A DNA stretch of 63,269 nucleotides, filler included, from Candidatus Eiseniibacteriota bacterium (GCA_043809585.1; 5 parts of 5 records of this genome joined end to end with filler, not necessarily neighbours in it), one strand, 5' to 3'; positions 38,558-60,917 are shown, counted from the whole stretch's first letter. Made by a program: numbers and translations. The notes: generated by a model from the sequence alone, not told the origin.

Positions 38558-38560
<3 letters not shown>
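38380..38560. mobile_element. Complete MITE of a separate TIR family, in tandem with the previous element
   Basis: TAGAACCGGTGGCACAACCTCC ... GGAGGTTGTGAAACCGATTCTA; core on minus strand CCGGAG-GTGGCCT-AAGA-AGGCCAT-TGAGGA (38455-38484). Confidence 0.8.
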
Positions 38561-39598
<1,038 letters not shown>

Positions 39599-42900: not shown

Positions 42901-43110
42901 GACATGACCGGGGCCGATCTCGCACGGGAGTGCCGGCGGATCCGTCCGGGCGTGCCGGTGGTGCTTTGCAGCGGCAGTGCGCCCGGCGCGGCGGCGGAGG
43001 AAGCGAGAAGCGCGGGAGTCCTCGCCTTTCTGAGGAAGCCTCTCGGCCGGGAAGATCTAGCACGGGCGGTGCGCCGGGCCCTTCGGCCGGCGGCGGTCCG
43101 GGAAGGGTAG
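39973..43110 (+). CDS. Cytoplasmic multi-PAS hybrid sensor histidine kinase
   Basis: About 5 PAS/PAC repeats, QKMEAIGTLAGGIAHDFNN H-box, NLCTNA, DSGCGM, PYFTTK, GTGMGL, receiver FVDDE..TDQTMP..KP. Confidence 0.95.
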   Translation: MHRDETKKDESPRRPEISVDPVREEEGGRPTALEGIVRNIAERKLARESILAERDRAESYLEVAGVLMVALDREGTVTMINRRGCEILGYPREEILGKDWFAHFLPQLFGAMVRGEFRRLIEGADREIQFFENPVLTSGGAERMISWQNRLLFDAEGRVVGTLSSGEDITERRRAEAAVEEERLRFFEVLEKMPAFVYLKAADHTIPFANRGFRDVFGDPEGKKCFEIMHGREKRCGECRTVRILESGESEVQEWTDGKGRVFLVHDHLFSGRGGEKLVLEVGTEITERKQVENALFESEWKHRRIFENASEGIVVAQDGFVKLANPKFEGFFEGKGKIYARPFVELVHPDDREMFLRADEARRRGEPVTENYAYRVVTGGGGIRWHETTGIGIEWEGRPATLSFHSDVTARRATEEELRKLKLISDHAGYGVAIADLDGNLAYVNESWARAHGYGPKELIGRNLVIFHRLEDLPRVEELNRQLVETGSYIAEEVLHVDREGRVFPMLMNGVLVRDEGGNPLYFGVTATDISALKEAKEERIRLATAIEQLADIVFILDLEGNVRYVNSALTTVTGFPREEAVGRDFAEYFETETTGEEEGGFRDALKSSGVWKRPLIGKKRGGRYDGQATFSPIRDEEGRVEQYVVSVRDVSAIIELERRLRQSQKMEAIGTLAGGIAHDFNNILYAILGFSELALEDAPPGSKCHECIEQVHDAGKRANKLVNRILSFSRQKEEERAPLQIQHVADETLGLLRGTLPATIEIRRRIDTRCPPVLANPTEIQQVVINLCTNASHAMKKNGGVLGLRVRARAIQEGTEAASLGLPSGSYVELDVTDSGCGMDEATRERIFDPYFTTKPVGEGTGMGLSTVHGIVAGLGGGIRVRSRPGRGSVFRVFFPALEEPAETPPVPEEAPEPAGGVTVLFVDDEPVLGILARSFLEGYGCAVETFTDPREALRRFREDPGRFDVIVTDQTMPDMTGADLARECRRIRPGVPVVLCSGSAPGAAAEEARSAGVLAFLRKPLGREDLARAVRRALRPAAVREG

Positions 43111-43114
43111 TGAA

Positions 43115-43492
43115 ATGGCCCGAGTGCTCGTGGTCGAAGACGATCCGCAGGTGCGAATGATGCTCCGGATGACGCTGGAACGGGCGGGGTGCGTGGTCGA
43201 CGAAGCGGAAGACGGCCGGGTGGCGCTCCGGAAGCACCGGCAGGATCCGGCGGACCTGGTCATCACCGACATCGTGATGCCCGAAGTGGAGGGGATCGAG
43301 ACGATCATGGAACTCCGGCGATCCTCGCCCGCCCTTCCGATCATCGCGATTTCCGGGGGGGGACACGAGTCGCCGGAGAGCTACCTCACAATCGCCGAAA
43401 AGCTCGGCGCGAACAGGACGTTCGCCAAGCCCGTGGACCGGGAAGAGATGCTCGAAGCGGTCAACGATCTCCTTGCCGGGGCCGTCAAATGA
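43115..43492 (+). CDS. Stand-alone response regulator receiver
   Basis: VLVVEDD, ITDIVMP, AISGG, AKP. Confidence 0.93.
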   Translation: MARVLVVEDDPQVRMMLRMTLERAGCVVDEAEDGRVALRKHRQDPADLVITDIVMPEVEGIETIMELRRSSPALPIIAISGGGHESPESYLTIAEKLGANRTFAKPVDREEMLEAVNDLLAGAVK

Positions 43493-43719
43493 GAACGGTT
43501 CGTTCCCGCCGGGATCAGGCCTTCTCGGTTTTGACCGGCTTGGTTTGCACTTACACGTTCGAGGGGGCGGGCGGCGACTCGACCCGGCTCCGGGTCGCCG
43601 TGCGCGCCTCGGGGGAGATCGCGGAAGGGTGGGCGGATGCCGTCGACCGGACCTGGCGCCACTTTATCTTCGACCGTTTCTTTCCTCATGTCGCCTCGGG
43701 GGCCCATCTCGGGAAGTGA
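43489..43719 (+). pseudogene. Short ORF resembling the C-terminal half of an SRPBCC/START-fold protein; probable remnant
   Basis: CTYTFE..STRLRVAVRASG..WADAVDRTWRHFI pattern (two strands plus long helix); ATGA overlap with the receiver gene. Confidence 0.4.
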
Positions 43720-43740
43720 CGGAGGGGCCGCCGAAGCTCC

Positions 43741-43770
43741 TTGACGCGCCCCTCCGCCGCCCCCTAATAT
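43741..43770 (+). promoter_or_regulatory. Candidate sigma-70 promoter
   Basis: TTGACG-N18-TAATAT upstream of 43819. Confidence 0.45.
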
Positions 43771-43818
43771 CGAATGGGATTCGATCGACCGACCCCCTTC
43801 GCCCGCAGGAGGTGACCC

Positions 43819-44424
43819 TTGCCCACCGTCCCCTCGGTCCGAACGGTTCTCGTCGCGATCGGCCTTTCCCTCTTCCTCTTCTCCTGCGCGTCGGCGCCCC
43901 CTCCGGGTGAATCGAACGGGTCCCCGGAAGGGGAAACGCCCGGCCGGGAGGCCAGGAAAGAACCAGGAACGCCGGCGGGAGACCCCCGGGGCTCGGAGAC
44001 CGGCGAGGAGGATCCGTTCCAGGAAACCCTCATGGTCAACAAGCACGGGACGGTCTACACGGACATCGACCGGTACGACGTGCGGAACATCCGGTTCAAC
44101 ACGGGACACGGATTCGGCGGCGGGGACGCCCTCGTCGGATACTACAAGAACACTCGATTCGAGATCAAAAAGCGCTTCATCGACAAGCTGACGGTGATCG
44201 GCAAGGTGAGCCGGTCCGAGATCCTCTCGGAATCCCACAGGTACGACATGATCGAGGACAAGGACGTCGACTACATCTTCCGTACCGACCTCAAGAAGAC
44301 GGACGGAGAGCGGATCGAATTCATCGTGCGCATCAATCAGATCAGCGGCGAGCTGCAGGAGGGGGGGGCGTTCGACCTGAGGGGGGACGAGCTCAAGGCG
44401 CTCCGGAAGATCGTATTCTTCTAA
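43819..44424 (+). CDS. Hypothetical lipoprotein
   Basis: TTG start with RBS AGGAGG, lipobox FLFSC, disordered linker, globular C-domain. Confidence 0.8.
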   Translation: MPTVPSVRTVLVAIGLSLFLFSCASAPPPGESNGSPEGETPGREARKEPGTPAGDPRGSETGEEDPFQETLMVNKHGTVYTDIDRYDVRNIRFNTGHGFGGGDALVGYYKNTRFEIKKRFIDKLTVIGKVSRSEILSESHRYDMIEDKDVDYIFRTDLKKTDGERIEFIVRINQISGELQEGGAFDLRGDELKALRKIVFF

Positions 44425-44467
44425 TTCCGGCCGGTTGCCCGCCGGCCGAACCGCCGAGGAGGTGGCC

Positions 44468-44701
44468 ATGTCGAGGGCTTATCTGAGGATCAACACGGAG
44501 ATCGGGCGGGAGGTGGAGGTTCGGGATCAGCTGCGTCAGGTGGAAGAGGTGCTTTCCGCGGACATCACCGCGGGCGAACAGGACATCATCTGTCTCGTCG
44601 AGAGCAGTTCCGTCGACTCGATCCTCGATCTCGTGGTGGGCAAAGTTCGGGGCATCGGGGGGATCCAGGGGACGACCACGAACCTGATCTTGGACTGGTA
44701 G
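44468..44701 (+). CDS. Stand-alone Lrp/AsnC ligand-binding (RAM) domain protein
   Basis: AYLRIN..G.E.EV...L..V..V..A....GEQDII..VE..KVRGIGGI..TTTNL; RBS GAGGAGG. Confidence 0.85.
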   Translation: MSRAYLRINTEIGREVEVRDQLRQVEEVLSADITAGEQDIICLVESSSVDSILDLVVGKVRGIGGIQGTTTNLILDW

Positions 44702-44844
44702 CCCCGCCGCGAGCCCGGGAGGGGGCCTCCGCCGGCGGCGGGAAAGGTCCTGTTGATTCCCTTGGAATATAACGGGTTACCTGTGTTGTCCCCGGCCCGC
44801 CCGGACCCCCGCGAAAATCGTTTCCATAATATTTCGCTTTCGCA

Positions 44845-44873
44845 TTGCCAACCCCTCCTTTTTCGACTAGCGT
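44845..44873 (+). promoter_or_regulatory. Candidate sigma-70 promoter of the polyamine operon
   Basis: TTGCCA-N17-TAGCGT, leaving a ~170-nt leader before 45047. Confidence 0.45.
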
Positions 44874-45046
44874 TACCCTGCTGGACAACGGCGGGCTTTT
44901 GCCCGTCGCGGGTCCTGGGAGCCCCCTCGAGGGGCGGGTGGGGTCGTTCGCGCGCGACCCGGTGTTTTCGGAGAGTCCCGTCCGCCAGGCAAGCACGTCC
45001 GGCGAGGCGGGCCACCCCCTCTAAGAGGATAGGGAGGTAGAAGTCG

Positions 45047-45442
45047 TTGTCGAAAAGCGCTTCTCCGGGCTTCCATGTGATGCTCGACCTCGCCGGGGTT
45101 CCCCGGTCGGCCTGCACCGATGATGGGAGCCTCGTGAAGACCCTCGCGTCCGCCTCGGAGCGGGCCGGCTGCACGGTCATCAACTCCGTTCGCTATCGGT
45201 TCGGGCAGAACTCGCCCGACGGTTGCACCGCCTTCGTCATGCTCGACGAGAGCCATGTCGCGGTGCATACCTACGCGGACGACGGGCTCATGGCGGTGGA
45301 CGTTTTCGTCTGCGGCGAGCGGGCCCGGGAGAAGGCGGCCGGGATCGTGGAGGAGCTGCGCCGCGCCGTTCCCCACGCCCAGTGTCGTCAGACGTCGCTC
45401 GATCGTTTCGTCGGGGAGAAGGAGAGTGTGGCGGCGGGTTGA
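45047..45442 (+). CDS. speD: Pyruvoyl-dependent decarboxylase proenzyme, AdoMetDC/SpeD family
   Basis: GFHVMLDL, GCT, MLDESHVAVHTY (E|S self-cleavage site), VDVFVCG; TTG start with RBS GGGAGG. Confidence 0.88.
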   Translation: MSKSASPGFHVMLDLAGVPRSACTDDGSLVKTLASASERAGCTVINSVRYRFGQNSPDGCTAFVMLDESHVAVHTYADDGLMAVDVFVCGERAREKAAGIVEELRRAVPHAQCRQTSLDRFVGEKESVAAG

Positions 45443-45565
45443 CTCCGCCGGGCCCTCGGCGGGGGCCTCTGCCGCGGATCCCGTTCGGGATCTCTTCTCG
45501 ATGTCGATTTCTCGCGAACCGCCCGCCCTCCGCGGGCGGTTCCGGTTTGAAGGGAAGAGGGGGGA

Positions 45566-46645
45566 GTGACCATGGACCGGGAGTTTCACGACGGCCGGGA
45601 GGACGGTCTCGAGCCCCTCGAGTCCCTGAACGTCCGGCGTGAGGGGGGCCTGCCCGGCCTCCTCGAGGGGATGTCCAAGACCGCCTTCGGCGGGCGGGCG
45701 CTGGGCGAGGCGTTCGGCGTTCTCCGCGCGAGGGCGTCCGACCCGGACTGTACGATCGTGGTCACCCTCTCGGGGGCGATGACCGTCGCCAAGATGGGTC
45801 TCGTCCTCTGCGACATGATCGAGCACGGCCTCGCCCACATCGTCGTCAGCACCGGGGCGATCATGGCCCACGGCCTCTCCGAGGCCTCGGGGGGCGTCCA
45901 CTACAAGCACGACCCGAAGGTCCCCGACGAGACCCTTTACCGCTGGGGCTACAACCGGGTCTACGACACCCTCGAGATGGAGGCGAATCTGAACGAGGCG
46001 GAACGGTTCGCCCGCTCCGTCCTCGCGGAGTTCGACTGGAGCCGCCCCACCTGCTCCCGGGAGGTGACCGAGGCCCTCGGCCGGCGCCTCCACGAGGAAG
46101 GTCAGATGCCGAGCGTTCTCGGCTGGGCGTACAAGAAAGGGGTTCCGGTCTACGTCCCCGCCTTCACCGATTCGGAACTCGGACTCGACGTGGCGACCTT
46201 TTCCCTCCACCGGGCGGGAGCCGAGGCGAAGCAGGACGACCCGGACCGCTTCTTCGAGACGCCGCCCCCGTTCAACCCTTTCCTCGATCTTCACGATTTC
46301 GCGCGGCGCCTGGTAAAGGCGAAGACCATCGGCATCTTCACGATCGGCGGCGGCGTCCCCCGGAACTGGGCGCAGCAGGTGGGGCCCTTCGCGGAGATCA
46401 TCAACCACCGGCTCGGAACGGAGATCCCGGTCCCCCGGTACCGCTACGGCGTCCGCATCTGTCCGGAGCCCGTCCACTGGGGCGGGCTCTCCGGATGCAC
46501 CTATTCGGAAGGGGTTTCGTGGGGTAAGTTCGTGCCCCCCGAGGAGGGGGGACGATGGGCGGAGGTAAGGAGCGACGCCACCATAGCATGGCCGATCTTG
46601 ATCCGCGCCTATCTCGAGTCGATCGGAAAGGTGCAGACTCCATGA
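45566..46645 (+). CDS. Deoxyhypusine synthase-like protein (SpeY-type candidate)
   Basis: TLSGAMT, VSTGA, NRVYDT, PAFTDSELG, IGGGVPRNW, WGGLSGCTYSEGVSWGK, DATIAWP. Confidence 0.92.
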   Translation: MTMDREFHDGREDGLEPLESLNVRREGGLPGLLEGMSKTAFGGRALGEAFGVLRARASDPDCTIVVTLSGAMTVAKMGLVLCDMIEHGLAHIVVSTGAIMAHGLSEASGGVHYKHDPKVPDETLYRWGYNRVYDTLEMEANLNEAERFARSVLAEFDWSRPTCSREVTEALGRRLHEEGQMPSVLGWAYKKGVPVYVPAFTDSELGLDVATFSLHRAGAEAKQDDPDRFFETPPPFNPFLDLHDFARRLVKAKTIGIFTIGGGVPRNWAQQVGPFAEIINHRLGTEIPVPRYRYGVRICPEPVHWGGLSGCTYSEGVSWGKFVPPEEGGRWAEVRSDATIAWPILIRAYLESIGKVQTP

Positions 46646-47517
46646 GCGAGCCGCCGTTCCGTTCATTCCTCGACCTTCCCCGCCGGCCCGAGCGGGACGC
46701 GGACGTCGTGATCCTTCCTCTCCCCTTCGAGAGGACCGTCTCCTACGGGCGCGGCACGGCGGGGGGTCCCGGCGCGATTCTCGGAGCGAGCGCCCAGATC
46801 GAGCTCTTCGACGAAGAGGTCGGACACGACTTCGAGGCCGCCCCCCGAATCCACACGGCCCCTTTCCTCCACCCCGAGAGCGGGGAGGAAGTCCCCGCCT
46901 ATCTCGATAGGGTGGCGGCCCGGGCCCGCGGGGCGGGTGACAGGTTCGTGCTCGGCCTCGGCGGGGAGCACACGGTCACCTACGGGATGGTGGCCGGACT
47001 CCCGGTTGATCCGGCGAACCTCACGGTCGTCCAGATCGACGCCCACGCTGATCTGATCGACCGCCTGGACGGCGAGGAGTGGTCCCACGGGACGGTGATG
47101 CGGCGGCTGTGGGAACTTGGCGTTCGTCTCGTCCAGATCGGCGTCCGGAGTGTTTCCCGAGAGGAGCACGACTTCATTACGAAGGGGGACCGGATCCGGA
47201 CTTTCTTCGCCCACGAACACCGGGACCGGCGCCTGGAAATTCTCGATTCTCTCCGGGCCCTCACGGGGCCGGTCTATCTCTCCCTGGACGTGGACGGGCT
47301 CGATCCCTCCGTGATTTCGACCACGGGGACGCCTCAGCCCGGCGGGCTCGACTGGTACGAGGGGGTGGAGATTATCCGGGCCGTCGCCGAGGCTCCCGCC
47401 GCGCGCCTCGTCGGCGCCGATCTGGTCGAGTACGTCCCCTCTCCTCATCCCCCGGGCTCGGACCTCGCCGCGGCGAAGCTCGCCGTCAAGATCCTCGCCT
47501 ATCGGTTCGGAGGGTAG
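46642..47517 (+). CDS. speB: Agmatinase/ureohydrolase
   Basis: TVSYGRGT..GP, GGEHTV, IDAHADL, SHGT, SLDVDGLDPS..TGTPQPGG; ATGA overlap. Confidence 0.92.
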   Translation: MSEPPFRSFLDLPRRPERDADVVILPLPFERTVSYGRGTAGGPGAILGASAQIELFDEEVGHDFEAAPRIHTAPFLHPESGEEVPAYLDRVAARARGAGDRFVLGLGGEHTVTYGMVAGLPVDPANLTVVQIDAHADLIDRLDGEEWSHGTVMRRLWELGVRLVQIGVRSVSREEHDFITKGDRIRTFFAHEHRDRRLEILDSLRALTGPVYLSLDVDGLDPSVISTTGTPQPGGLDWYEGVEIIRAVAEAPAARLVGADLVEYVPSPHPPGSDLAAAKLAVKILAYRFGG

Positions 47518-47621
47518 GGGCGCGCGTCGTAGACTTATTTCCTCCGTGAAGACCCAGCGATGGTGGGAGTACCGGCGGGTCCTGACCGCTCCTGTCCGCT
47601 GCAGTGCTCGTCAGGGGGGGG

Positions 47622-47723
47622 TTGGGGACACAATACGGAACTCCGGGGATTGGGGACACAATACGGAACTCCCAATTGAGTATTGTGTCCCCCGAATAGC
47701 GGATTAGGTATTGTGTCCCCCGA
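47622..47723. repeat. REP-like cluster: two direct copies followed by two inverted copies
   Basis: TTGGGGACACAATACGGAACTCC at 47622 and 47650; GTATTGTGTCCCCCGA at 47680 and 47708; lies between convergent genes. Confidence 0.85.
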
Positions 47724-47726
47724 CTT

Positions 47727-48788
47727 TCACAGGTCGAACCCGAGCCCGGGGCGGTCGGTGGGATAGAGGACGCCGTCCTTCAGGATGACGGCGCCCGCGG
47801 TCGGGTCGTCCAGGAGATCGAGGTGGCCGTCGAGGTCGCAGTAGGCGACGTTCGGCCGGGCGAGGGCGAAGTGGAGGCCCGCGGCGATGGCGAGCGCCGC
47901 CTCGTCCATGCATCCCACCATCACTTCGAGGCCCGCCGCCCGGGCGACGCCGTTGATGAGGAGCGCCTCGGCGATCCCGCCCACCTTCATCAGTTTCACG
48001 TTCACCATGTCGACCAGGTCCCCGCGGGCGAGGCGGAAGGCGTCGAGGAGGGTCATGAGGCTCTCGTCGGCCATGATCGGGAGGGCCACCCCCTGGGTGA
48101 CCCGGCCGAGGAGGGCGGGCTCCCCCTTCGGCGTCGGCTGCTCGATCAGCTCGAGCTTTCCCGCCCTAGCCCCCTCGACGAAGCGGAGCGTCTGCTCCAG
48201 CGTGTATCCCTGGTTCGCGTCGAAACGGAGCTCCACTTTCGGTCCCACCGCCTCCCGCACTTTGAGGATCCGCTCCGCGTCGAGGTCCGGGTCCTTGCCC
48301 CCCTTGATCTTCAGGGACCGGAAGCCGCGCCCCGTGAGGTCCCGGGCCCGCTCCACCGTCTCCTTCACCGGGAGGATGCCGACGGTGACGCTGGTGACGA
48401 AGGAGCGACGGTAACCGCCGAGCAGTTTCCAGAGCGGGAGTCCCGCGGTCTTCCCGAGGATGTCGTGGAGGGCCATGTCGAGGGCGGCCATCGTCGATGA
48501 CCGGCCCGTCAGGGGCCGCCGGAGGCGTTCGATCACCCGGCTCGTCCGGAGCGGGTCGGCCCCGACGAGGTGGTCCCCTTTCACGGCGTCGATCGCGGCG
48601 AGTACATCTTCTGGTGTCTCGCCCGTCACGGGCGGATCGGGGGCGGCGCAGCCGAATCCGGTGATCCCGCCGCTCGTTTCGAACCGGACGAAGATGTTCA
48701 CCGCCGTGTCGACCTTCTCGTAGGCGATCTCGTACGGCTCGGCGAGCCTCATCTCGACGCGCCACGCCTCGACCCGGGTGATCTTCAT
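47727..48788 (-). CDS. Enolase-superfamily dipeptide epimerase / N-acyl-amino-acid racemase (AEE/DgcA-like)
   Basis: LKIKG (KxK), DANQG, IEQP, ADES, NVKLMKVGG, GCMDE, DLDG (DxD). Confidence 0.92.
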   Translation of the reverse strand: MKITRVEAWRVEMRLAEPYEIAYEKVDTAVNIFVRFETSGGITGFGCAAPDPPVTGETPEDVLAAIDAVKGDHLVGADPLRTSRVIERLRRPLTGRSSTMAALDMALHDILGKTAGLPLWKLLGGYRRSFVTSVTVGILPVKETVERARDLTGRGFRSLKIKGGKDPDLDAERILKVREAVGPKVELRFDANQGYTLEQTLRFVEGARAGKLELIEQPTPKGEPALLGRVTQGVALPIMADESLMTLLDAFRLARGDLVDMVNVKLMKVGGIAEALLINGVARAAGLEVMVGCMDEAALAIAAGLHFALARPNVAYCDLDGHLDLLDDPTAGAVILKDGVLYPTDRPGLGFDL

Positions 48789-48789
48789 C

Positions 48790-51156
48790 TCAGTACTTCT
48801 TTTCGTACATCTCGTCGAGGGTCATCGCCTTCAGGTCCTCCACGAGCGCGACGAGATGCTCGATCATCACGTCCCACATCTTCCGGCCCTTCTCGGCGCT
48901 CGCCTTCGTCGCGTCCCCCATCACGCCGCTCTCCGAGATCCGCTTGGTGAAGGCGTACCACGACACGCCCCTCCGCGAGGTGAAGTTCAGGTAGCGGCTC
49001 GAAAAGCGGGGGATCTCCCTCTCCGCCTTGTCCATCTGCACCATGTCGGGTCGCACGGCGAGGGAAGTGCTCGTCTCGACCTCCCCCGCGTGGACGTCGT
49101 TCGGCGTCTCCGTCATCGCCTCGATGTCCACGTCGCTCGTCTCCCCCGTGTCGACACCGACGAAGATGCGCGCGTCCCGGTTGATCATCTGGGCGGCGAA
49201 GTTGAGGGACGGCCCGTTCCCCCCGTGGCCGTTGATGATGAGCAGCTTGGTGACGCCGTTGGCGGCGGCGCTCATGCCGATCTCGTAGATGAGCCGCGAC
49301 AACGTCTCGTTTCCGACGCTGATCGTCCCGGGAAACTCGTTGTGGTGGTACGACACGCCGTAGGGGACGAGGGGGAGGACCACCGGCTTCGGGTCGCTGC
49401 ACTGGCGCGCCACTTCCCGGGCGAGGTAGTCCGCGTCGAAGGCGTCCGTGTCGAGGGGGAGATGGCGGCCGTGCTGCTCGATGGCGCCGACGGGGAGGAG
49501 CGCCACGTCGACCATGCCGAGCCTTTCCCGCGCCTCGGGCCAGGTCAGGTCTCCGAGGAGGATGCTCCGGCACGCCCGGTTCTCCGGCCCGTAGTCCCCG
49601 GAGCGGCCCCGCTCGAAGGAGTAGGGGCGGTCGATGGCGGCTTCCTTCTCGGGGTCGAAGTCGACCCACGCGCGCCCCTGCCTTCGCACCGCGCCGTTCG
49701 CGTGTTCGCCGAGGATGCGGAACAGGGGGCGCCTCATCTCCACCGGGATCCCGTCGATCGGCGACCGGACCGGGTCGAACCGCAGTTTCAGGATCTCCGG
49801 GTGCTCCCGGAGGCGGGCTTTCCGCTCCGGGGTGAGGTCGATCGCCCCGCTCTGCGAGAGCATCCAGCGGAGCTGGCGCTCGCCCCCTTCCTCCTGATGG
49901 ACTCCCTTCACCGCGAGCTCCGCCCGGCAGTGCTCGACCTGCTCCGCCGTGTATCCCGCGAGGCCCGGCTCGCCGCCGACGGCGAGGAGCATACCGACGA
50001 TGCGCCGGCACTTCTCGCATTTGCCGCAAGGCTTCACGCGATCCCCTTCCTTGTGGGTCGCGTGGCAGGAGACCTGGTGCTCGAAAAGGGCGGGGTACCG
50101 CTCCACTAGGGTCTTCTGGATGAGCAGCTCCGACGCGGGGCGGAGAATGGAGAACTGGGAGAGGGGCCAGCTCTTCCGCGCGTAGTAGCGGGAGAGAACG
50201 TTGTCGAAATAGCGGCTCTGGTCGAAGAGGCCGTCGTAGTGGGTGATCCCCTTGTGGGTGGTCCGGCATGTCGTGTCGTATTCGTCGCCGATCAGGATGC
50301 GCCCCGCGCCCCTCCGCCGGGCCACGGGGAGGATCCCGAACAGGAAGACCGCCACCGTCCAGAGGCGGATCGGGTACTCGTCGGAGCGGACGCTCGCGAA
50401 GTCCTTTCGGATGAAGGGGAGGTGGCGGAGCATCTCGGCGAAGACCCGGTCCGAATTCATCCAGACCCGCGCCGCGTGAGGAACGTTCTCCTTGAAGTGA
50501 CGGTGCGCGTTCAGCGCCGTGAGCCAGTGCCGCCCCGACTCGTTGCCGAAGACCGGGTGGACTTCGTACCCCATCTCGGAGAGGAGCCCGAAGGTGAGCA
50601 GGCTGTCCTTGCCTCCGCTCGAGAGGACGACGCACCGGCGCCGGTCGGGCGCCCCGCTCTTCCACGAGATCTTCCCGTTCCCCTTTTCCGCATCCGGGAA
50701 GCGGAGGGCGGCGCGGAGGTACTGCTCCCGCCGGACGTGGGGCACCTCCCGCCCTTCCCCCACGAGGAAGGGGTTCGGCTCGAGGAACTTCTTCACGTAG
50801 ATCTCCCGGGCCGTGTTCTCCGCCATCTCGGCGAGGAACCTCCGGTCCGCGAGGTCGAAGGGCCCCCGGAAGACGATCTCCTTCGCGAAGAGACCGTAGT
50901 TCAGGGCCACCTGGGCTCCGGCGACGGCGGCGAGATTCCGGTCCTCCGGAGCGCCGGGATCGAAGACCGGCTCCTCGAAACGGTAGACGAAGTCGACGGT
51001 GTGCCTCTCCCGCCCCTTCCGGACGGTGTAGGGGGTCGTTACCCGGTCCGCCTCCACCCGGTCCGGTCCCACCTCGAGGGAGTCCCACACGACAAGCAGA
51101 TCGAGGGGGTCCTTCCCTCGGCGGCTTCCGCTCCCCTGCTTCTTCTTGTCCGTCAA
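48790..51156 (-). CDS. Fusion of a PP-loop ATP pyrophosphatase (QueC/MurL-like) domain and a creatininase-family amidohydrolase
   Basis: LSSGGKDS PP-loop, SCH..PCGKCEKC; C-domain LTWPE, PVGAIEQHGRHLPLDTD, YGVSYHH..FPGT, NGHGGN, HAGEVETS, SGVMGD; TTG start overlaps the upstream TGA, RBS GGAGGAGG. Confidence 0.88.
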   Translation of the reverse strand: MTDKKKQGSGSRRGKDPLDLLVVWDSLEVGPDRVEADRVTTPYTVRKGRERHTVDFVYRFEEPVFDPGAPEDRNLAAVAGAQVALNYGLFAKEIVFRGPFDLADRRFLAEMAENTAREIYVKKFLEPNPFLVGEGREVPHVRREQYLRAALRFPDAEKGNGKISWKSGAPDRRRCVVLSSGGKDSLLTFGLLSEMGYEVHPVFGNESGRHWLTALNAHRHFKENVPHAARVWMNSDRVFAEMLRHLPFIRKDFASVRSDEYPIRLWTVAVFLFGILPVARRRGAGRILIGDEYDTTCRTTHKGITHYDGLFDQSRYFDNVLSRYYARKSWPLSQFSILRPASELLIQKTLVERYPALFEHQVSCHATHKEGDRVKPCGKCEKCRRIVGMLLAVGGEPGLAGYTAEQVEHCRAELAVKGVHQEEGGERQLRWMLSQSGAIDLTPERKARLREHPEILKLRFDPVRSPIDGIPVEMRRPLFRILGEHANGAVRRQGRAWVDFDPEKEAAIDRPYSFERGRSGDYGPENRACRSILLGDLTWPEARERLGMVDVALLPVGAIEQHGRHLPLDTDAFDADYLAREVARQCSDPKPVVLPLVPYGVSYHHNEFPGTISVGNETLSRLIYEIGMSAAANGVTKLLIINGHGGNGPSLNFAAQMINRDARIFVGVDTGETSDVDIEAMTETPNDVHAGEVETSTSLAVRPDMVQMDKAEREIPRFSSRYLNFTSRRGVSWYAFTKRISESGVMGDATKASAEKGRKMWDVMIEHLVALVEDLKAMTLDEMYEKKY

Positions 51157-52244
51157 CGGCCCTCCTCCTTCTTCGCCTTCGCCCGGGCGAGAACGAGATC
51201 GGCCAGCTCCGCGGCGCCGTCCAGGAGAACGTCGAAGGCGGGGATCCCGACGGTCCTCGCGATCGCGGCGCGGACGAAGGGGATCTCCTCCCTCGCGAGC
51301 CCCTCGTGGTTGAGCGTGACCGCGAGCACCCGTTTCCCGGAGACGAGCTCCGCCGCTTCGATCTGGCGGGAGAGGGGATGAATCGGGTAGCCGGGGAAGC
51401 CGTCGTACTCCTTCCGGGCGGGGGCGTCCTGCATGACGATCCCGTCGGGGCGGGCGGCGGCGAGAATCTCGAAGCCGCCGGGGTAGGCGGGGTTCATCAG
51501 GCTCCCCTGCCCCTCCACGACGATCACCTCGGGGGACTCGTTCTTCCAGGCGCTCCAGACGGCGTGCTCGATCTCGCCCGTCACGAAGTCGTTGACGAGG
51601 GAGTCCATGACGATCGAGTGGCGGGCCCCCTGGAGCCACGCGGTCTGCCCCGTCCCGACCATCTCGGCCTTCCGCCCCTTCCCCTCGATTGCCTCGACGA
51701 GCTTCCACGCCGTCGTCCTCTTCCCGACGGCCGAGTCGGTGCCGAGGAGGGCGACGACGTAGCAGTCGACCTCTTCGATCTTGCCGCAGAAGAAGCGCTG
51801 CTCCGACCGGGCCGGGGGTTTCCGGGTGTCCCGGATGCGGACGTCCCTCGACTTCGCGAGCGCGGCGAGCTCCGGGTCCTCGGAGAAGAAGTCGTGGAGC
51901 CCCGAGTCGACGTGGAGCCCCGCCTCGATCGCCTTCCGGACGTCGGCCCGGCCGGCGGGGGAGAGGCGGCCGCCGTCGGGGGCGAGGCCGACGACGAAGT
52001 GCGTCGCCGGGGCGCCCGAGGCGCGGGCCCGGTCGAGCCCCTCGGCGAGGGAGGCCACGATCGGAACGCCGTTCGGTTTTCCGTCGAGCACTTCCCCCGC
52101 GTCCTCACCGGCGTACCGGGAGTCGACCACCGCCGCCACGTCGTAGCGTCGGGTGAAGCGGACCAGCCCGTGGGCGGTCTTCCCGTTCGTCGTGTTGAAA
52201 GCGCCCTCCGAGTAGACGAGGGCGATGCCGTCCTTCTTCATCAT
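51153..52244 (-). CDS. DUF1611 family protein (DgcN-like)
   Basis: GKTAHGLVR, GLAPDGG, SGLH, GTDSAVGKRTT, GTGQT, EGQGSL..P. Confidence 0.92.
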   Translation of the reverse strand: MMKKDGIALVYSEGAFNTTNGKTAHGLVRFTRRYDVAAVVDSRYAGEDAGEVLDGKPNGVPIVASLAEGLDRARASGAPATHFVVGLAPDGGRLSPAGRADVRKAIEAGLHVDSGLHDFFSEDPELAALAKSRDVRIRDTRKPPARSEQRFFCGKIEEVDCYVVALLGTDSAVGKRTTAWKLVEAIEGKGRKAEMVGTGQTAWLQGARHSIVMDSLVNDFVTGEIEHAVWSAWKNESPEVIVVEGQGSLMNPAYPGGFEILAAARPDGIVMQDAPARKEYDGFPGYPIHPLSRQIEAAELVSGKRVLAVTLNHEGLAREEIPFVRAAIARTVGIPAFDVLLDGAAELADLVLARAKAKKEEGR

Positions 52245-53377
52245 CTCTTCCCCGTCAGCACGATGACGTACCGGTCGTTCCCGAGGGCCTCCTTCTGGTG
52301 CCGGTCGAGGAGGGCGATCAGGCCGGCGGTGGAGGCGGGAAGGGTGTTCAGGCCCTCCCTCTCGCGGATGAACTTCGAGTAGGAGAGCATGCTCTTATCG
52401 GAAGCGTTTGCCGCCCAACCTCCGGTGGTCCGAATGGCGTCGAGGGCCGGGTCGCCGTCGATGGAGTGCCAGTTGACGAGGGGTTCGTTCACGCTCGTCT
52501 CCTTGACGCGCTCGGGCACGAGGTCCTCGCAGGTGTCGAGCCCCTTGGCGAAGGCCCGGGTGATCGGGTTCTTGCCGAAGGTGGACCCGGCGACGATCTT
52601 CGGGATCCGGGAGGTCTTCCCCCGCCTGTTCAGGCTGAGGAAGCCCTTGTAGATTCCCGCGAGGGTGGTGCCGTTCGAGACGGGGGCGGCCACGACCGCC
52701 GGGGCGTCCCGGAGTTCGTCGTAGATCTCGTAGGCGATCTCGCCGTAGGAGCGGAGCTGGAGGGCCGTGTTCGCGCCGCCGGGGTTCGCGTCGTACACCT
52801 CGTCCCGCTCCGCCCGCTCCCGGGAGGCGACCACGGCGGCCTCGTAGTCCCCCGGCACGCGGACGATGGTCCCGCCGAGCTTCACCATCTCTTCGACACG
52901 CTTGGTGTGATACGTCTCGGGGATGTAGATGAGGCACTCGAGGCCGGCGAGGGAGGCGGCGAGGGCGACGGCGGCGCCGTAGTTGCCGCAGGTGGCGACG
53001 GTGACGGCGTCGTAGCCGCGGCGGAGGGCGTCCATGGCCTGGGCGAAGGCGATGCGGTCCTTCTGGGTGCCCGTCGGATTCCCCCCCTCGAACTTGAGGT
53101 AGAGCTGGCGGAGGCCGACCTCGCGCTCGATGTTCCGGGCCCGGGTGAGGGAGGTGTCCCCCACCTCGGAGTCGAAGAGGTCCTCGTACGCCTCGAGCCG
53201 CTCCTCCACGTCCCGGGTTCGATCCCGGGCGATTTCGACGGCGTCCTTCAGGTCCGGGGAGTAAGTCCGCTCCTGGGGGGTCGCGCCGTCCAGGATCGGA
53301 TCGGAGAGTTGACTACCCGGCGGAACGGCCTCCGGCGGGGCTTCCACCTCCGGGGGATCCGGAATCTTGTCGTTCAT
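52241..53377 (-). CDS. PLP-dependent fold-type II enzyme, threonine synthase-like
   Basis: LYLKFEGGNPTGTQKDR (PLP lysine), ATCGNYG, PVSNGTTLAG, PAST; RBS AGGGAG; ATGA overlap with DUF1611. Confidence 0.92.
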   Translation of the reverse strand: MNDKIPDPPEVEAPPEAVPPGSQLSDPILDGATPQERTYSPDLKDAVEIARDRTRDVEERLEAYEDLFDSEVGDTSLTRARNIEREVGLRQLYLKFEGGNPTGTQKDRIAFAQAMDALRRGYDAVTVATCGNYGAAVALAASLAGLECLIYIPETYHTKRVEEMVKLGGTIVRVPGDYEAAVVASRERAERDEVYDANPGGANTALQLRSYGEIAYEIYDELRDAPAVVAAPVSNGTTLAGIYKGFLSLNRRGKTSRIPKIVAGSTFGKNPITRAFAKGLDTCEDLVPERVKETSVNEPLVNWHSIDGDPALDAIRTTGGWAANASDKSMLSYSKFIREREGLNTLPASTAGLIALLDRHQKEALGNDRYVIVLTGKR

Positions 53378-54027
53378 TGTTTTTGTCGGTCTCCCTACCG
53401 GCCTCAGGGGCCGGCCGGGGCGTCTTCCGCCCCATTCGGTCGGATGCGGTTGAAGTATAGAACGGGGGGGCGCGACGCAAGGGAAAAAAGGGGGGGCCGT
53501 GGCCGGGGCGCCGTTTCGGCGGGGCGGGGGCCGGGAGAGGGAGGGTTGCGGGTCGGACGTGAACGCTCGTCGTGCTGCGGGAGGAAACCCTCCCTTTCTC
53601 CGGGCTCGTAGAGGAAGCGTTGTTGATAACGCCAACAACTCCCCGGTGATGACCCGATCCCTCCCGAAACCGGTCCCCGCCCCGACGGTTTCTCGCGCAG
53701 AGCAGAGAGAGTCACCCGTTGCCCCGGCCACCCGTCCGTGGCAAGGCATGCTCAGCGAGGAGTGCAGAGCTGAATGGGTGACCGTCCCTGTTTTCCGCCA
53801 GGGAACGGGGCTTCGGAGTGAGCAATCGCCCCACCCTACCTCCCACGGAGCTTCGCGCCTCGAGGCGATGACGATTGATCGATTCTGGTGATTTCTGGTA
53901 GGATATTCTGGCACCAGCGGGAAGAGTCGAATTCCCGCCACCATCAAGAACGGAAATCGAGGAGTGCCCCCGGCCATGAACCACTCCCCGCACTTCCAAG
54001 TCGTATCCATTTCCTCCGGACGAATCA

Positions 54028-54327
54028 ATGCCCGCCGGCCGGCACTCGGTGGGCCTCACTCCGGACCGCCTCTCGAGCGGCGTCTACTTCTACATTCCGA
54101 CGGCGTACGGGACTGTATCGGCATTCGGGTCTGGCGGGGAAGCGGAGAACGAGTTCGACGATCCCTCGAGATCGACGATTCTCTCCGCCGCCGACATCGC
54201 CGCCGAGCGGGAAGAATCGATCCGCTCCAACCAGGACCGGATGGCGCGGGAGATCGCCGCCCTGCGTTCCGAAGTGGAAGCGCTCCGGCGGGAGATGGGG
54301 GGGAGGGAGGAGGGAGGGGGGGACTGA
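54028..54327 (+). pseudogene. Probable gene remnant containing a FlgD/T9SS-tail fragment and a coiled coil
   Basis: MPAGRHSV..LSSGVYFY matches the tails of the 18059 and 30690 proteins; no N-terminal part is present. Confidence 0.4.
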
Positions 54328-54445
54328 CGGCCAGAGAGGAGGTAAAGACGGGAACAGTCGCCGGACTCCAAGAAGTGAGTGATTGACACCGTTTTCGGCC
54401 CCATCTCTATCGGCTCTTTGCCTCCAGCCAAGTTCGGAGGGTCCC

Positions 54446-54625
54446 ATGAAGAAGTTCTTTGAGTCCGGCGCGGCCTTCATGGTGGTCGCCTTGATCATGG
54501 TCTTCGTCGGTTTCCTCCCGGGCAATAGCGGCGTTCTGGTCGGCGCGGGCGGGTTCTGGCTCATCATGGCGATTGTCACTCACAGCAAGTACAAGAAGAA
54601 CCAGGTGAAGAATCGATCGGAATGA
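54446..54625 (+). CDS. Small two-TM membrane protein
   Basis: RBS GGAGG, two hydrophobic helices, basic tail. Confidence 0.65.
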   Translation: MKKFFESGAAFMVVALIMVFVGFLPGNSGVLVGAGGFWLIMAIVTHSKYKKNQVKNRSE

Positions 54626-54681
54626 CCGGTCCTTGTTCCAGGCGAATGGGCGGCTGATACCGGTTTTTAGAGGAGAGATTC

Positions 54682-55017
54682 ATGGCCGATCCGAAGTTCT
54701 CACTTCCGGCGCGTTATCGGGACGCCGGGCTGCTGCTGGTTTTCGGTCTCCTGGGCATCGCGAACGGCCGTGGAAGGCTGGGCGACATCGTCGGCGGCGC
54801 GCTGATCGGGATGGCGCTCTGGCCTTTCCGGCGGTTCGGGTGGATCGCCGCGGGAGCCGTCGCCCTGGTTCTGTCGGCGATGCTCTGGTGGGAGCTGCTG
54901 ACCGATGCCCCGGGTGCCGCAGGTGTCGGCCGTCCTGTCATGATGACCCTGATCGCCCTGCTCCTCTTCGGGCTGGGCCTCCGCCATGAGGGGGGCGGAG
55001 AGGAGCGCCCGAACTAG
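54682..55017 (+). CDS. Small four-TM membrane protein
   Basis: RBS AGAGGAG, four hydrophobic segments; stop TAG lies in the MITE CTAG. Confidence 0.7.
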   Translation: MADPKFSLPARYRDAGLLLVFGLLGIANGRGRLGDIVGGALIGMALWPFRRFGWIAAGAVALVLSAMLWWELLTDAPGAAGVGRPVMMTLIALLLFGLGLRHEGGGEERPN

Positions 55018-55155
55018 CCTTGATTTTTCATAAAATCTCGGCTCAAAACGCTGACGCTCGCATGATAGCACGCCATCTGCGACAGTGCTCGCATTCACCA
55101 ATGCTCACATATCGTTGGATATGCTCTGCTTGGTGAATGCTGCGCGCTGCCGCAT
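55014..55155. mobile_element. MITE end (TIR CCTTGATTTTTCA, same as the 13753 element), truncated at contig end
   Basis: CTAG-CCTTGATTTTTCA; nested hairpins GCATTCACCAA..TTGGTGAATGC and CATATC-GTTG-GATATG. Confidence 0.8.
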
Positions 55156-55255
55156 NNNNNNNNNNNNNNNNNNNNNNNNNNNNNNNNNNNNNNNNNNNNT
55201 TAATTAATTAANNNNNNNNNNNNNNNNNNNNNNNNNNNNNNNNNNNNNNNNNNNN
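55156..55255. other. Artificial contig spacer
   Basis: N44-TTAATTAATTAA-N44. Confidence 0.99.
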
Positions 55256-55394
55256 CCGCCTGCGAAGCCTCCTTTCCGTCGCCGCCTCCTCGACGTAGTG
55301 CATGACTACGCCTCCGGTGGCGGCTCGTCCAAGTCGGCTTCTCGTCAGGCGATCCGAGCCCTCGTGACGGAGATTCATGCATAATCCAGGCTAG
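55256..55394. mobile_element. End of multicopy MITE, truncated at contig start
   Basis: Reverse complement of 38004-38142; its CTAG contains the pilD stop codon. Confidence 0.85.
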
Positions 55395-56161
55395 CCTGTG
55401 GCGAAGGCGAGGTACCGGGCGACCCACGCCTCTCCGTAGAGCAGGGCGAGGAAGCCGATGGGGGCGAGGAAGACGCCGAAGGGGATCGGCGCCGACCCCT
55501 TCCCTCCCCGGAAGAGAATGAGCCCCGTTCCGAAGAGCCCGCCCGCGAGGGACGAGAGGAAGAGTACGCCGAGCACCGGCTGCCATCCGAGATAAGCGCC
55601 CATCATGGCGGCGAGCTTCACGTCGCCCCCCCCCATCCCCTCCCGCTTCCGGATCCGGAAATAGAGCTCGGCGATCAGCCAGAGACTCCCCCCGCCGACG
55701 GCCATTCCGATCAGCGCGTCGGGCCAGTCTCCGCCGATCCACCCGCGCCAGAGGAGACCGAGGGGGATGCCGGGGAGGCTGAGCGCGTCCGGGATGATCT
55801 GCAGGTCGTAGTCGGTCAGGGTGATCGCGAGGAGCGCCGCCCCGTAGTAGAGGGGGAAGACGATGGTCCAGTCGTGGGGGAACCGGCTCCAGAGGAAGAG
55901 GAAGAGGAGTCCCGTGAGCAGCTCGACGGCCGGGTACCGGATCGAGATCCGGGCGCCGCAGTCGCGGCACTTGCCGCGCAGGAAAACCCAGGAGAGGACC
56001 GGGATGTTGTCCCGCCATCGGATGGCGTGCTTGCAGGCCGGGCAGGCGGACTCGGGGGAGACCACCGACCGGTTTCGCGGGAGCCGCCAGACACAGACGT
56101 TCAGAAAACTGCCCGCCGCGAGGCCGACGAGAAAGATGTAGGGGGTCCAGAACGAATCCAT
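55391..56161 (-). CDS. pilD: Type IV prepilin peptidase
   Basis: GSFLNVC..RLP, SACPAC, DNIPVLSW..LRGKCRDC..ISIRYP, TD, GMGGGDVKL, IPFG. Confidence 0.95.
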   Translation of the reverse strand: MDSFWTPYIFLVGLAAGSFLNVCVWRLPRNRSVVSPESACPACKHAIRWRDNIPVLSWVFLRGKCRDCGARISIRYPAVELLTGLLFLFLWSRFPHDWTIVFPLYYGAALLAITLTDYDLQIIPDALSLPGIPLGLLWRGWIGGDWPDALIGMAVGGGSLWLIAELYFRIRKREGMGGGDVKLAAMMGAYLGWQPVLGVLFLSSLAGGLFGTGLILFRGGKGSAPIPFGVFLAPIGFLALLYGEAWVARYLAFATG

Positions 56162-56162
56162 G

Positions 56163-56753
56163 TCAAGAGAGAGGGGGCGGGCCTTTCCCCCCCGCGATCT
56201 TCCCGCTCCGGCGGGCGTAGCCGGCGATGCCGCGGAAGTCCTCGACAAGCTCCGGTTCGAGCCTGCGATTGTAGAGGATCGCCGCGGGGTGATAGATGGG
56301 GATCACGAATCGCCCCCGATAGGCGAACCGCCGACCGTGGGCCGCGCCGATGGTCGTCTTCTCCGGCGCGAACAGGCTGAGCGCGAAATTCCCCATGGGG
56401 ACGAGGACCGCCGGGTCGATGATCTCGATCTGCCCGTCCAGCCAGGACCGGCAGTGCTCGATCTCCTCCGGGCGGGGGTTCCGGTTCCCCGGCGGGCGGC
56501 ATTTCAGCACATTGGCGATGTAGATCTCCTCCCGCGCGAGACCGGCGGCGGCGAGAGTCTTGTCGAGGAGCTTTCCCGCCTGCCCGACGAAGGGGACGCC
56601 CGTCTCGTCCTCCCGTTTGCCCGGCGCCTCGCCGATCAGCATGACGCCGGCGCTCCCGTCTCCCGACCCGAAGACCACCGAGCGGCGGCTCCCGGCGAGA
56701 GCGCACTTTCCGCACGCCTTGACGGTCCTTTCCAGTCCGGCGAGCCGCGTCAA
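56163..56753 (-). CDS. Family 4 uracil-DNA glycosylase (start uncertain)
   Basis: CGKC.L, VFGSG, IGEAPG..E..G.PFVG, NVLKCRPP.NR.P, YHPAA; TTG 56753 has RBS GGAGGGAG. Confidence 0.92.
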   Translation of the reverse strand: MTRLAGLERTVKACGKCALAGSRRSVVFGSGDGSAGVMLIGEAPGKREDETGVPFVGQAGKLLDKTLAAAGLAREEIYIANVLKCRPPGNRNPRPEEIEHCRSWLDGQIEIIDPAVLVPMGNFALSLFAPEKTTIGAAHGRRFAYRGRFVIPIYHPAAILYNRRLEPELVEDFRGIAGYARRSGKIAGGKGPPPLS

Positions 56754-60817: not shown

Positions 60818-60917
60818 NNNNNNNNNNNNNNNNNNNNNNNNNNNNNNNNNNNNNNNNNNNNTTAATTAATTAANNNNNNNNNNNNNNNNNNNNNNNNNNN
60901 NNNNNNNNNNNNNNNNN
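60818..60917. other. Artificial contig spacer
   Basis: N44-TTAATTAATTAA-N44. Confidence 0.99.

Follow-up and report, generated by a model that had tools for sequence, protein, structure and literature searches.

What does a bacterium make, or break down, with a pyridoxal-phosphate (PLP) enzyme, a DUF1611 protein, a PP-loop enzyme fused to a creatininase-family hydrolase, and an enolase-superfamily epimerase whose genes stand side by side on one strand? The question is raised by positions 47727-53377 of a 63,269-nucleotide stretch of DNA from a Candidatus Eiseniibacteriota bacterium (GCA_043809585.1), the whole of which we call the window. The initial annotation, made from the sequence alone, had proposed that the five catalytic activities of these four minus-strand genes form one route that makes, acylates, epimerises, and deacylates an unusual amino acid or short peptide, and it had likened part of the set to D-glutamate catabolism. 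Our results reveal that the four genes are one conserved functional unit. The reading that we prefer, to which we give a probability of roughly 0.45, is that they encode a single small-molecule pathway with its steps in gene order, the substrate of which is an amino acid (probably basic, and not glutamate) in N-acylated or aminoacylated form. The operon represents an orphan pathway in which enzyme families that are already known, with a new branch among them, are combined in a new way; its proteins can be placed at the level of the superfamily only (PALP, DUF1611, PP-loop, creatininase, and MR_MLE). Neither a description of the cluster nor a published pathway that its genes would match, an outcome for which the initial annotation had allowed, was found in the literature searched, which was mostly literature other than subscription journals.

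The linkage of the four genes is far beyond chance. A search with the fusion protein, which had been suggested as a check on the proposal, scored 8000 candidates, of which 2925 were relatives at E ≤ 0.001. Among the 120 of these that were listed, identity is 61-100% over 97-100% of the length, and those with a name are called just "creatininase family protein" or similar. When one genome per species was scanned, at least 594 loci matched the pattern and at least 510 were confirmed; the counts that follow come from the best 80 of these. The DUF1611 gene and the PLP gene were each present in 68 of the 71 loci with at least 2.4 kb upstream, the epimerase gene in 61 of the 64 with room downstream, and all four genes in 52 of the 56 with room on both sides, in every case (52/52) with the same order and strand. 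In keeping with what the initial annotation proposed, the five domains are kept together in other genomes, here under at least 14 phylum labels. Median identity to the proteins of the window was 69% for the PLP enzyme, 63% for DUF1611, 61% for the fusion, and 64% for the epimerase, and across phyla the proteins of four-gene loci are 55-81% identical. The exceptions to the full cluster are L007, L038, L041, L046, and L077. The genome carrying L038 has an orthologous DUF1611 gene elsewhere (65% identity), and that carrying L041 has a DUF1611 homologue of just 35% identity.

How the operon came to be so widely distributed can be addressed with a FastTree phylogeny of 73 fusion proteins. Phylum labels are attached to 59 of its rows (14 labels); to place these labels, which come from bins and may be wrong, the tree requires 22 changes, where 13 is the minimum possible and shuffled labels average 37.5. 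Inheritance of the fusion appears to be partly vertical, with several cross-phylum placements. Within the phylum of the window, 6 of 10 genomes carry the fusion (5 of 8 if only high-quality genomes are counted), and the operon is accessory, not essential. Judged by record titles, the hosts are mostly sediment and groundwater bins, with soil bins too, and the carriers are mostly uncultured; Desulfosarcina variabilis and D. widdelii are cultured examples.

The structure of the operon is that of a tightly coupled unit. The PLP and DUF1611 genes share an ATGA overlap (AGATGATGAAG), the DUF1611 gene and the fusion gene share a TTGA overlap that provides a TTG start (GGCCGTTGACGG), and a 1-bp gap separates the fusion from the epimerase (TACTGAGATGAAG). 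All four open reading frames (ORFs), their junctions, and all five domain assignments were recovered as first annotated, the latter by Pfam scores or motif. The GC content at third codon positions is 0.92-0.95 in the four genes of this 66% GC genome and is therefore consistent with real genes. A recent foreign insert was considered and rejected, since GC is 0.687 in the operon and 0.664 in the genome as a whole. All five parts, DUF1611 included, are single-copy in this genome.

A second type of cluster distinguishes what is constant in this system from what can be exchanged. Stand-alone PP-loop proteins exist (about 460-520 amino acids, 22-50% identical), and in one protein of 855 amino acids (P0128) DUF1611 is fused to the PP-loop half. 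Scanning metagenomes with the stand-alone proteins gave at least 600 pattern matches, at least 542 of them confirmed, and 80 loci were kept for counting. Of these, 44 have room upstream; DUF1611 lies there in 43 and the PLP gene in 40, in the order seen in the window. The PLP protein is up to 74% identical to that of the window, and the PP-loop protein only 28-42%. A creatininase match was present in one of the 80 loci, where it was weak and 5 kb away, and a convergent GNAT acetyltransferase was present in 41 of the 62 loci with room. In 17 loci, an epimerase that is 44-47% identical abuts a protein of 449 amino acids with a gap of at most 22 bases, and the two share a strand in 16 of the 17 (the exception is L085). 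This 449-amino-acid protein, in which an H-x-x-E is invariant, has no sequence match in Pfam, NCBIfam, or the PDB; of the 30 Atlas clusters nearest to it, 29 belong to Peptidase_M14. This cluster type is largely archaeal-looking: a proteasome alpha subunit is a neighbor in 7 loci. The named members of the cluster belong to Thermoplasmatota and NC10. The conserved core of the system is the PLP enzyme, DUF1611, and the PP-loop enzyme, and the epimerase together with a hydrolase, either creatininase or M14-like, is an exchangeable module. Because one or the other hydrolase adjoins the epimerase, a hydrolase that would free a C-terminal residue travels with the epimerase in both types. From the five-domain route first proposed, the core triad survives; the hydrolase and the epimerase are not fixed members, since they are replaced in the second type.

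Within the core, the PP-loop half of the fusion is a small, separate family of the QueC fold. No Pfam or NCBIfam model reaches its cut-off on this half. Pfam QueC (PF06508), with a cut-off of 22 bits, gives 18.9 along a stretch of 30 residues and matches 4 of 22 relatives at E ≤ 1. Membership in the PP-loop ATP pyrophosphatase superfamily is nevertheless established by the SGGxDS motif and the fold. The SSGGKDS stretch is invariant in 12 of 12 fused orthologues, its residues S180, G181, G182, and S185 reach a conservation of 90% or more across 22 distant relatives, and it is the site of weak matches by the PDB PP-loop proteins MnmA, TtuA, and Cap9. A cysteine cluster with the spacing C-x12-C-x2-C-x2-C, which we take to resemble the zinc site of QueC, has all four cysteines invariant in the 12 fused orthologues; among the 22 relatives, C364, C377, and C380 are invariant and C383 is at least 90% conserved. 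An AlphaFold2 model built on 22 sequences (predicted local distance difference test score, 91.0; predicted template modelling score, 0.91) places the motif after strand 171-179 and before helix 183-194. Against the PDB, Foldseek returned six matches at E ≤ 0.001, namely two QatC, QueC 2pg3, Cap9, and two chains of QueC 3bl5, with values of 4.2e-6 over 404 columns for QatC 9y02_B, 9.6e-5 for 2pg3, and 1.6e-4 for Cap9 9nto_B; MnmA and TtuA were next in the list. An exhaustive HMMER search over 1.84 billion representatives gave only 419 matches to this half at E ≤ 0.001. One orthologue from the same class as the genome of the window (G036:C73:70951-73377) matches in two pieces, residues 11-520 and 525-788, within one frame of 893 amino acids, so that its two domains are joined through an insert of about 27 residues.

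By analogy with its structural relatives, the PP-loop half presumably adenylates a carboxylate. QueC-family enzymes form amides, according to two reports (PMC13279940; bioRxiv 10.1101/2025.04.06.647259). QueC, Cap9 of type IV CBASS, and QatC of QatABCD resemble our protein in fold, in the PP-loop, and in the C-terminal cysteine cluster, and their logic is one of carboxylate adenylation followed by attack of an amine. Yet identity to them is only 14-19%, the Pfam QueC score is below cut-off, and the PP-loop half has an extra N-terminal domain of about 170 residues as well as a C-terminal extension of about 120. Unlike these systems, the operon contains no 7-deazaguanine genes or defence partners.

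A second set of comparisons supports the view that the PP-loop half is a distant relative of MurL, not a member of that family. The MurL model (NF041275) gives 24.4 bits (9.2e-6) against a cut-off of 700. It matches 5 of 17 PP-loop relatives, the best being P0257 (7.2e-10, 37.9 bits, model positions 130-354 of 447); P0134, P0136, and P0156 were also among the relatives in this comparison. In the ESM Atlas, the MurL_N and MurL_epimerase_C families account for 27 of the 30 nearest clusters with scores up to 0.96, and the two nearest clusters of all (0.98) are unnamed. MurL itself was detected in 0 of 31 genomes in the class of the genome that carries L028. MurL depends on ATP, is proposed to act by adenylating a C-terminal Glu on its alpha-carboxylate, and was regarded in 2021 as lacking known conserved domains (PMC8788868). 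MurL now appears, by the same comparisons, to be a QueC-fold PP-loop enzyme, which would fit the proposed adenylation. The literature found on this point consisted of MurL reviews only, and no paper proposing that MurL is a PP-loop enzyme was among it. In the MurD2-MurL system of Xanthomonas and some actinobacteria, an alternative way of supplying D-Glu for peptidoglycan synthesis (PMC8788868), an amide-forming enzyme is followed by an ATP-dependent one that is proposed to adenylate a C-terminal residue on its alpha-carboxylate for inversion, and the operon is similar in this respect. It differs in missing the MurL cut-off, in having no Mur ligase, in belonging to a genome with MurI, and in having cluster variants that adjoin archaeal-type genes (the proteasome alpha subunit mentioned above), with a substrate that would not be a UDP-MurNAc peptide. 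A role for the route as a replacement of MurI was rejected, given that the genome has its own. What the initial annotation called a PP-loop enzyme therefore keeps its superfamily, and it is not a generic member but a separate QueC-fold family with a distant relationship to MurL.

The PLP enzyme, also part of the core, belongs to fold type II and the ThrC family (PALP, 184.6 bits in Pfam), and our comparisons indicate that it is a distinct ThrC-like subfamily and not the threonine synthase of this genome. The thrC model TIGR00260 gives 103.8 bits (104.6 in a genome search), short of its cut-off of 167.1, and the threonine synthases that are its closest relatives in the PDB match at only 1e-21 to 5e-23. 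That the gene might be the only thrC of the genome, which the initial annotation had named as grounds for abandoning its proposal, was rejected, as another gene on contig C5 scores 225.1 bits with TIGR00260. Because the genome has its own ThrC, the pathway is not threonine synthesis. The PLP lysine is present in the motif NPTGTQKDR. Residues T88, S155, and R160 of the Thermus thermophilus ThrC (PDB 1uim), which we take to bind the substrate phosphate, align by phmmer to Y, P, and Q, although this alignment may be shifted, since an Arg is found two positions further on. In contrast to TIGR00260, the model NF004996 ("PRK06381 threonine synthase") gives 421.3 bits against a cut-off of 266. It rises above its cut-off in 0 of 14 control genomes and gives 436.1 bits for the PLP gene of a second-type metagenome locus (L093). 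It therefore appears to describe the enzyme of this operon, for which the name threonine synthase is putative. Across 71 bacterial loci, the PLP protein is 63-81% identical to that of the window.

The third member of the core is composed of a Rossmann-like N domain (PF17396, DUF1611_N, 87.6 bits) and a P-loop domain (PF07755, DUF1611, 201.1 bits). Its PDB relatives are 2g0t (6e-38), 7xrj (4e-28), and 2obn, and its Walker-A-like GTDSxxGKRT is invariant in 21 sequences. On analogy, it is presumed to be a distant relative of DgcN and an amino-acid N-acyltransferase; with the DgcN model (NF041892, D-glutamate N-acetyltransferase), it gives 134.7 bits against a cut-off of 480. A predicted complex of DUF1611 with the PP-loop half scored 0.00, which counts neither for nor against binding.

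The epimerase provides hints about the substrate. It belongs to the MLE subgroup of the enolase superfamily (MR_MLE_N, 73.9 bits; MR_MLE_C, 166.8 bits; Pfam) and matches dipeptide epimerases from end to end, including 3rit (4e-71), YkfB (1jpm/1tkk, 2.4e-64), and 3jva (1.6e-61). The AEE group of dipeptide epimerases is recognized by two catalytic lysines (KxK and K), three metal-binding acids, and a DxD after the last strand. All of these are kept here, and the stretches LKIKGG, KLMKVGG, RFDANQG, EQP, MADES, and DLDG align with the corresponding motifs of 3rit, 1jpm, and 3jva. In the 17 epimerases compared across both cluster types, E24, D51, K160, K162, D190, E216, D241, K265, K268, D318, and D320 are invariant; for E24 and D51, conservation is 90% or higher when 61 bacterial and 17 second-type epimerases are considered. 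At positions 24 and 51, YkfB has Arg and Thr, 3rit has Arg and Glu, and the operon epimerase has Glu and Asp. Because Glu replaces Arg24 of YkfB, which we presume to bind the Glu side chain, D-Glu and L-Ala-D/L-Glu are unlikely substrates. If the residue roles that we assume for YkfB and 3rit hold, E24 and D51 in the capping loops offer a lead toward a basic or polar C-terminal residue; 3rit was reportedly solved with a cationic dipeptide.

These features bear directly on the resemblance to DgcN and DgcA, which are reportedly a pair for D-glutamate catabolism. The likeness consists of a DUF1611-family protein beside an MLE-type racemase and a logic of acylation, inversion, and deacylation. However, the operon adds a PLP enzyme, a QueC-fold ATPase, and a fused hydrolase, and its carriers are found in different phyla. 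Both equivalog cut-offs are also widely missed, with the epimerase at 160.3 bits against 400 for DgcA (NF042940, N-acetyl-D-Glu racemase), and the epimerase has Glu where YkfB has Arg24. The operon is probably not the DgcN/DgcA route; the correspondence drawn in the initial annotation holds for the families and fails for the equivalogs, the enolase being nearer to the dipeptide epimerases. In murein-peptide recycling, an L-Ala-D/L-Glu epimerase such as YkfB or YcjG is accompanied by an M14 or other peptidase such as MpaA or PepD. Like that pair, the operon combines a full epimerase catalytic set and DxD with a hydrolase that would free the C-terminal residue. Unlike it, the operon epimerase misses the L-Ala-D/L-Glu epimerase models (NF041118, 207.5 against 500 bits; NF011708, 99 against 343), replaces Arg24 with Glu and Thr51 with Asp, and is coupled to a hydrolase that is creatininase-family and fused to an ATPase.

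The hydrolase is the creatininase half of the fusion. It matches PF02633 over the full length of the model (237.5 bits against a gathering score of 31.3; model positions 2-238, fusion residues 536-772), and E560, H562, D569, D571, H644, H689, and E692 are invariant in 12 orthologues. Its PDB matches are 3lub (1e-17) and 1j2t (1.4e-16). Creatininase proper (TIGR04448) is distant at 106.6 bits against a cut-off of 235. Judged by model scores, this half is closest to the peptide-cleaving MftE, the best-scoring named relative (TIGR03964), with 162.1 bits that are 10 below the cut-off of 172. In mycofactocin maturation, MftE cleaves an amide bond and releases a C-terminal moiety. The operon differs from that setting in that the domain is fused to a PP-loop enzyme, and no other mycofactocin gene was present among the Pfam-scanned ORFs of the contig that carries the operon (C90) or among the recurrent neighbors, with the caveat that the radical-SAM ORF at 38558-39817 was not typed.

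On the reading that we favor, the gene products would act in sequence. The ThrC-like PLP enzyme would make or supply an amino acid by beta/gamma-replacement or elimination, and DUF1611 would add an acyl handle to the alpha-amino group, as DgcN does with acetyl-CoA. The QueC-fold, MurL-like half would then adenylate the free alpha-carboxylate (ATP to AMP and pyrophosphate), leading either to inversion at C-alpha, as proposed for MurL, or to an amide with an amine or ammonia, as for QueC, Cap9, and QatC. The fused creatininase domain would cleave the amide of the product so that the handle is removed or a C-terminal residue is freed in the manner of MftE, and the enolase-type epimerase would interconvert the L and D forms of the C-terminal residue in a dipeptide-like product. 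Overall, ATP would be spent to produce or interconvert an amino acid or dipeptide of D configuration. That these steps are consecutive is supported by the gene fusions (PP-loop with creatininase, and DUF1611 with PP-loop in P0128) along with translational coupling. The gene structure, families, fold, conservation, linkage, and modular exchange are observed, and we infer the substrate, the order of the steps, and each catalytic step from them. The logic of making, acylating, epimerising, and deacylating is still the most economical reading. Thus, the single pathway of the initial annotation persists, with a triad as its core and a MurL/QueC-like enzyme in place of the PP-loop enzyme, and D-glutamate as its substrate does not.

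Several observations weigh against this scheme. A MurL-like ATP-dependent enzyme and a reversible enolase epimerase would be redundant if both invert the same center. DUF1611 has a P-loop and could alternatively be an ATP-dependent ligase, and the GNAT acetyltransferase of the second cluster type makes an acyltransferase role for DUF1611 less certain. The epimerase and peptidase pair could be a breakdown module that is opposed to a synthetic core. The DxD of the epimerase, which we assume to need a free N-terminal ammonium, does not sit easily with a simple N-acetyl handle. Moreover, the basic-substrate idea is a lead drawn from two acidic residues and from the roles that we assume for 3rit and YkfB, and the MurL link draws on sub-threshold hidden Markov model matches and language-model features.

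The alternative that survives best, although we consider it unlikely, is that the operon serves the salvage or catabolism of D-amino acids, or of dipeptides with D-residues, from cell-wall debris in sediment. DUF1611 would acylate the D-amino acid in the manner of DgcN, the enolase-type enzyme would racemise its N-acyl or dipeptide form like DgcA, YkfB, and YcjG, the creatininase or M14-like hydrolase would free the L-amino acid, and the PLP enzyme would degrade it. By NCBIfam names and PDB 1jpm, relatives of all four families are involved in the recycling of D-Glu or murein peptides. The epimerase always adjoins a hydrolase, most hosts are sediment and groundwater bins, and the patchy distribution within the phylum is what one would expect of accessory catabolism. 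The conserved core, however, includes an ATP-consuming activating enzyme that catabolism would not need, whereas it is the epimerase and the hydrolase that can be dispensed with. Among the recurrent neighbors, which were counted over 81 sources (the 80 loci and the window), there is no conserved gene for a transporter or for peptide uptake. The DgcN, DgcA, and L-Ala-D/L-Glu epimerase cut-offs are all missed, Arg24 is replaced by Glu, and the identity of the proteins across phyla is unusually high for a scavenging operon.

Genes that recur near the cluster invite another explanation. DUF2179 membrane proteins of the DUF5698 type are found in 13 of the 81 sources and those of the YitT type in 9, the YitT-type gene standing 3-97 bases behind the epimerase and in the same direction in 8 of its 9 loci. 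Such a protein may be a transporter of the substrate or product of the pathway; the window has none. Loci with the YitT type after the epimerase on the same strand are L031, L033, L037, L043, L057, L071, L072, and L078, and those with the DUF5698 type in this position are L003, L014, L020, and L068. Genes for Mg2+ transporters occur across several phyla (CorA in 8 loci, MgtE in 7); CorA follows the epimerase directly in L004 and L073, and MgtE precedes the PLP gene in L039, L061, and L063. Other recurrent neighbors are sigma-54 activators (20), HSP20 (6), and agmatinase (6, including the window).

With these neighbors in mind, one may ask whether the operon serves to produce an amino-acid amide, with or without an N-acyl group, or a similar compound that is neutral or cationic and is used as a compatible solute or counter-ion. 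In this case, DUF1611 would acylate, the QueC-like half would amidate with ammonia, as in the first half-reaction of QueC, and the hydrolase and epimerase would adjust or recycle the product. The QueC fold and the formation of amides from adenylated carboxylates by QueC relatives, as described in the reports cited above, would suit this idea, as would the DUF2179, CorA, MgtE, HSP20, and agmatinase neighbors and the polyamine genes convergent to the operon in the window. Yet the neighbor associations are weak, several of them being confined to close relatives, and the carriers show no sign of halophily and include groundwater and soil bins. Furthermore, an enolase epimerase needs a free carboxylate and could not act on an amide product, and we regard a solute role as rather improbable. 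Finally, it is very improbable that the PP-loop half modifies a protein or nucleic acid in the manner of Cap9 or QatC as part of a modification or defence system, since QatC of QatABCD is its best Foldseek match but is 14% identical, no other QatABCD or CBASS component occurs among the Pfam-scanned ORFs or recurrent neighbors, the partners are small-molecule enzymes (the PLP enzyme and a dipeptide epimerase), and a 2026 survey of the QueC family (PMC13329287), searched by term, mentions no creatininase, MurL, DUF1611, threonine synthase, epimerase, or "unknown function."

Features of the window that are discussed in the text, with positions counted from its first nucleotide
Feature	Position	Strand	Description
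PLP enzyme ORF	52241-53377	-	378 aa, ATG start
DUF1611 ORF	51153-52244	-	363 aa, ATG start
PP-loop/creatininase fusion ORF	48790-51156	-	788 aa, TTG start
PP-loop half	49582-51156	-	fusion residues 1-525; QueC-fold, own N-terminal domain
PP-loop motif SSGGKDS	50602-50622	-	fusion residues 179-185
Four-cysteine cluster SCHA...PCGKCEKC	50008-50067	-	C364, C377, C380, C383
Creatininase domain	48790-49569	-	fusion residues ~530-788; metal amidohydrolase family
Enolase-superfamily epimerase ORF	47727-48788	-	353 aa, ATG start
AdoMet decarboxylase	45047-45442	+	Pfam; convergent to operon
Deoxyhypusine-synthase-like protein	45566-46645	+	Pfam; convergent to operon
Arginase/agmatinase-family protein	46555-47517	+	Pfam; convergent to operon; ends downstream operon boundary
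100-N joints	28741-28840, 38143-38242, 55156-55255, 60818-60917		

The window is composed of five contigs of one assembly (C86, C89, C90, C98, and C116) with N-run joints (352 N in all). Because the contigs are merely joined by N runs, genes across a joint are not true neighbors. The operon is located on C90, which spans 38243-55155, and a prepilin peptidase gene (55391-56248) and UDG genes beyond 55155 were rejected as operon neighbors, as they lie on another contig. The three convergent genes at 45047-47517 form a polyamine gene set. Also on C90 are the radical-SAM protein on the minus strand and, at 39823-43110 on the plus strand, a hybrid histidine kinase of 1095 amino acids with three PAS domains and a receiver domain, neither of which is kept beside the operon elsewhere.

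Upstream of the operon, no ORF with a Pfam match was found at 53378-55155, a stretch filled by two dispersed repeats. The first, of about 142 bp, lies at the end of C90 (about 55014-55155) and has 62 blastn matches in the genome (E < 1e-10). Many of its copies are 87-100% identical, several are at contig ends, and two related genomes have a single copy each. With a match of about 71% to its own reverse, the repeat is palindromic and resembles a miniature inverted-repeat transposable element, and it is probably a cause of assembly breaks. The second, of about 170 bp (about 53516-53687), lies 140-310 nucleotides before the start of the PLP gene and separates the operon from any promoter further upstream. 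It has 85 blastn matches in the genome at 71-85% identity, contains internal hairpins (GTTGTTG..CAACAAC and GGGAGG..CCTCCC), and has no Rfam match; it may be a mobile element, an element of the repetitive extragenic palindromic type, or an RNA gene. No riboswitch or leader reached the Rfam gathering score in the window, and up to E = 1 the DNA upstream of the operon gave a chance match to a miRNA model alone. This upstream DNA is alignable in close relatives only and has no cross-phylum similarity. No promoter-like site was found, and the terminator count was below the shuffled mean.

The cluster is widespread, being present at no fewer than 510 loci in genomes and no fewer than 542 in metagenomes, and its genes are currently annotated as just "threonine synthase," "creatininase family protein," or "hypothetical protein." A more specific version of the pathway that we prefer is doubtful. 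In this version, anaerobic sediment bacteria and archaea would have an ATP-driven route to a D-configured basic amino acid, dipeptide, or amino-acid amide, and the PP-loop enzyme and MurL, itself a PP-loop adenylating enzyme, would form a second large QueC-fold branch that acts on the alpha-carboxylate of acyl-amino acids and not on 7-deazaguanine. The cultured carriers, D. variabilis and D. widdelii, make the question testable at the bench. Identification of the product would give DUF1611 a function outside D-Glu catabolism, would provide MurL-type enzymes with a mechanism and a superfamily, and would mend the systematic misannotation of the NF004996 "threonine synthase." More generally, it would reveal a metabolite, possibly a D-amino-acid compound, that is common to many uncultured sediment lineages.

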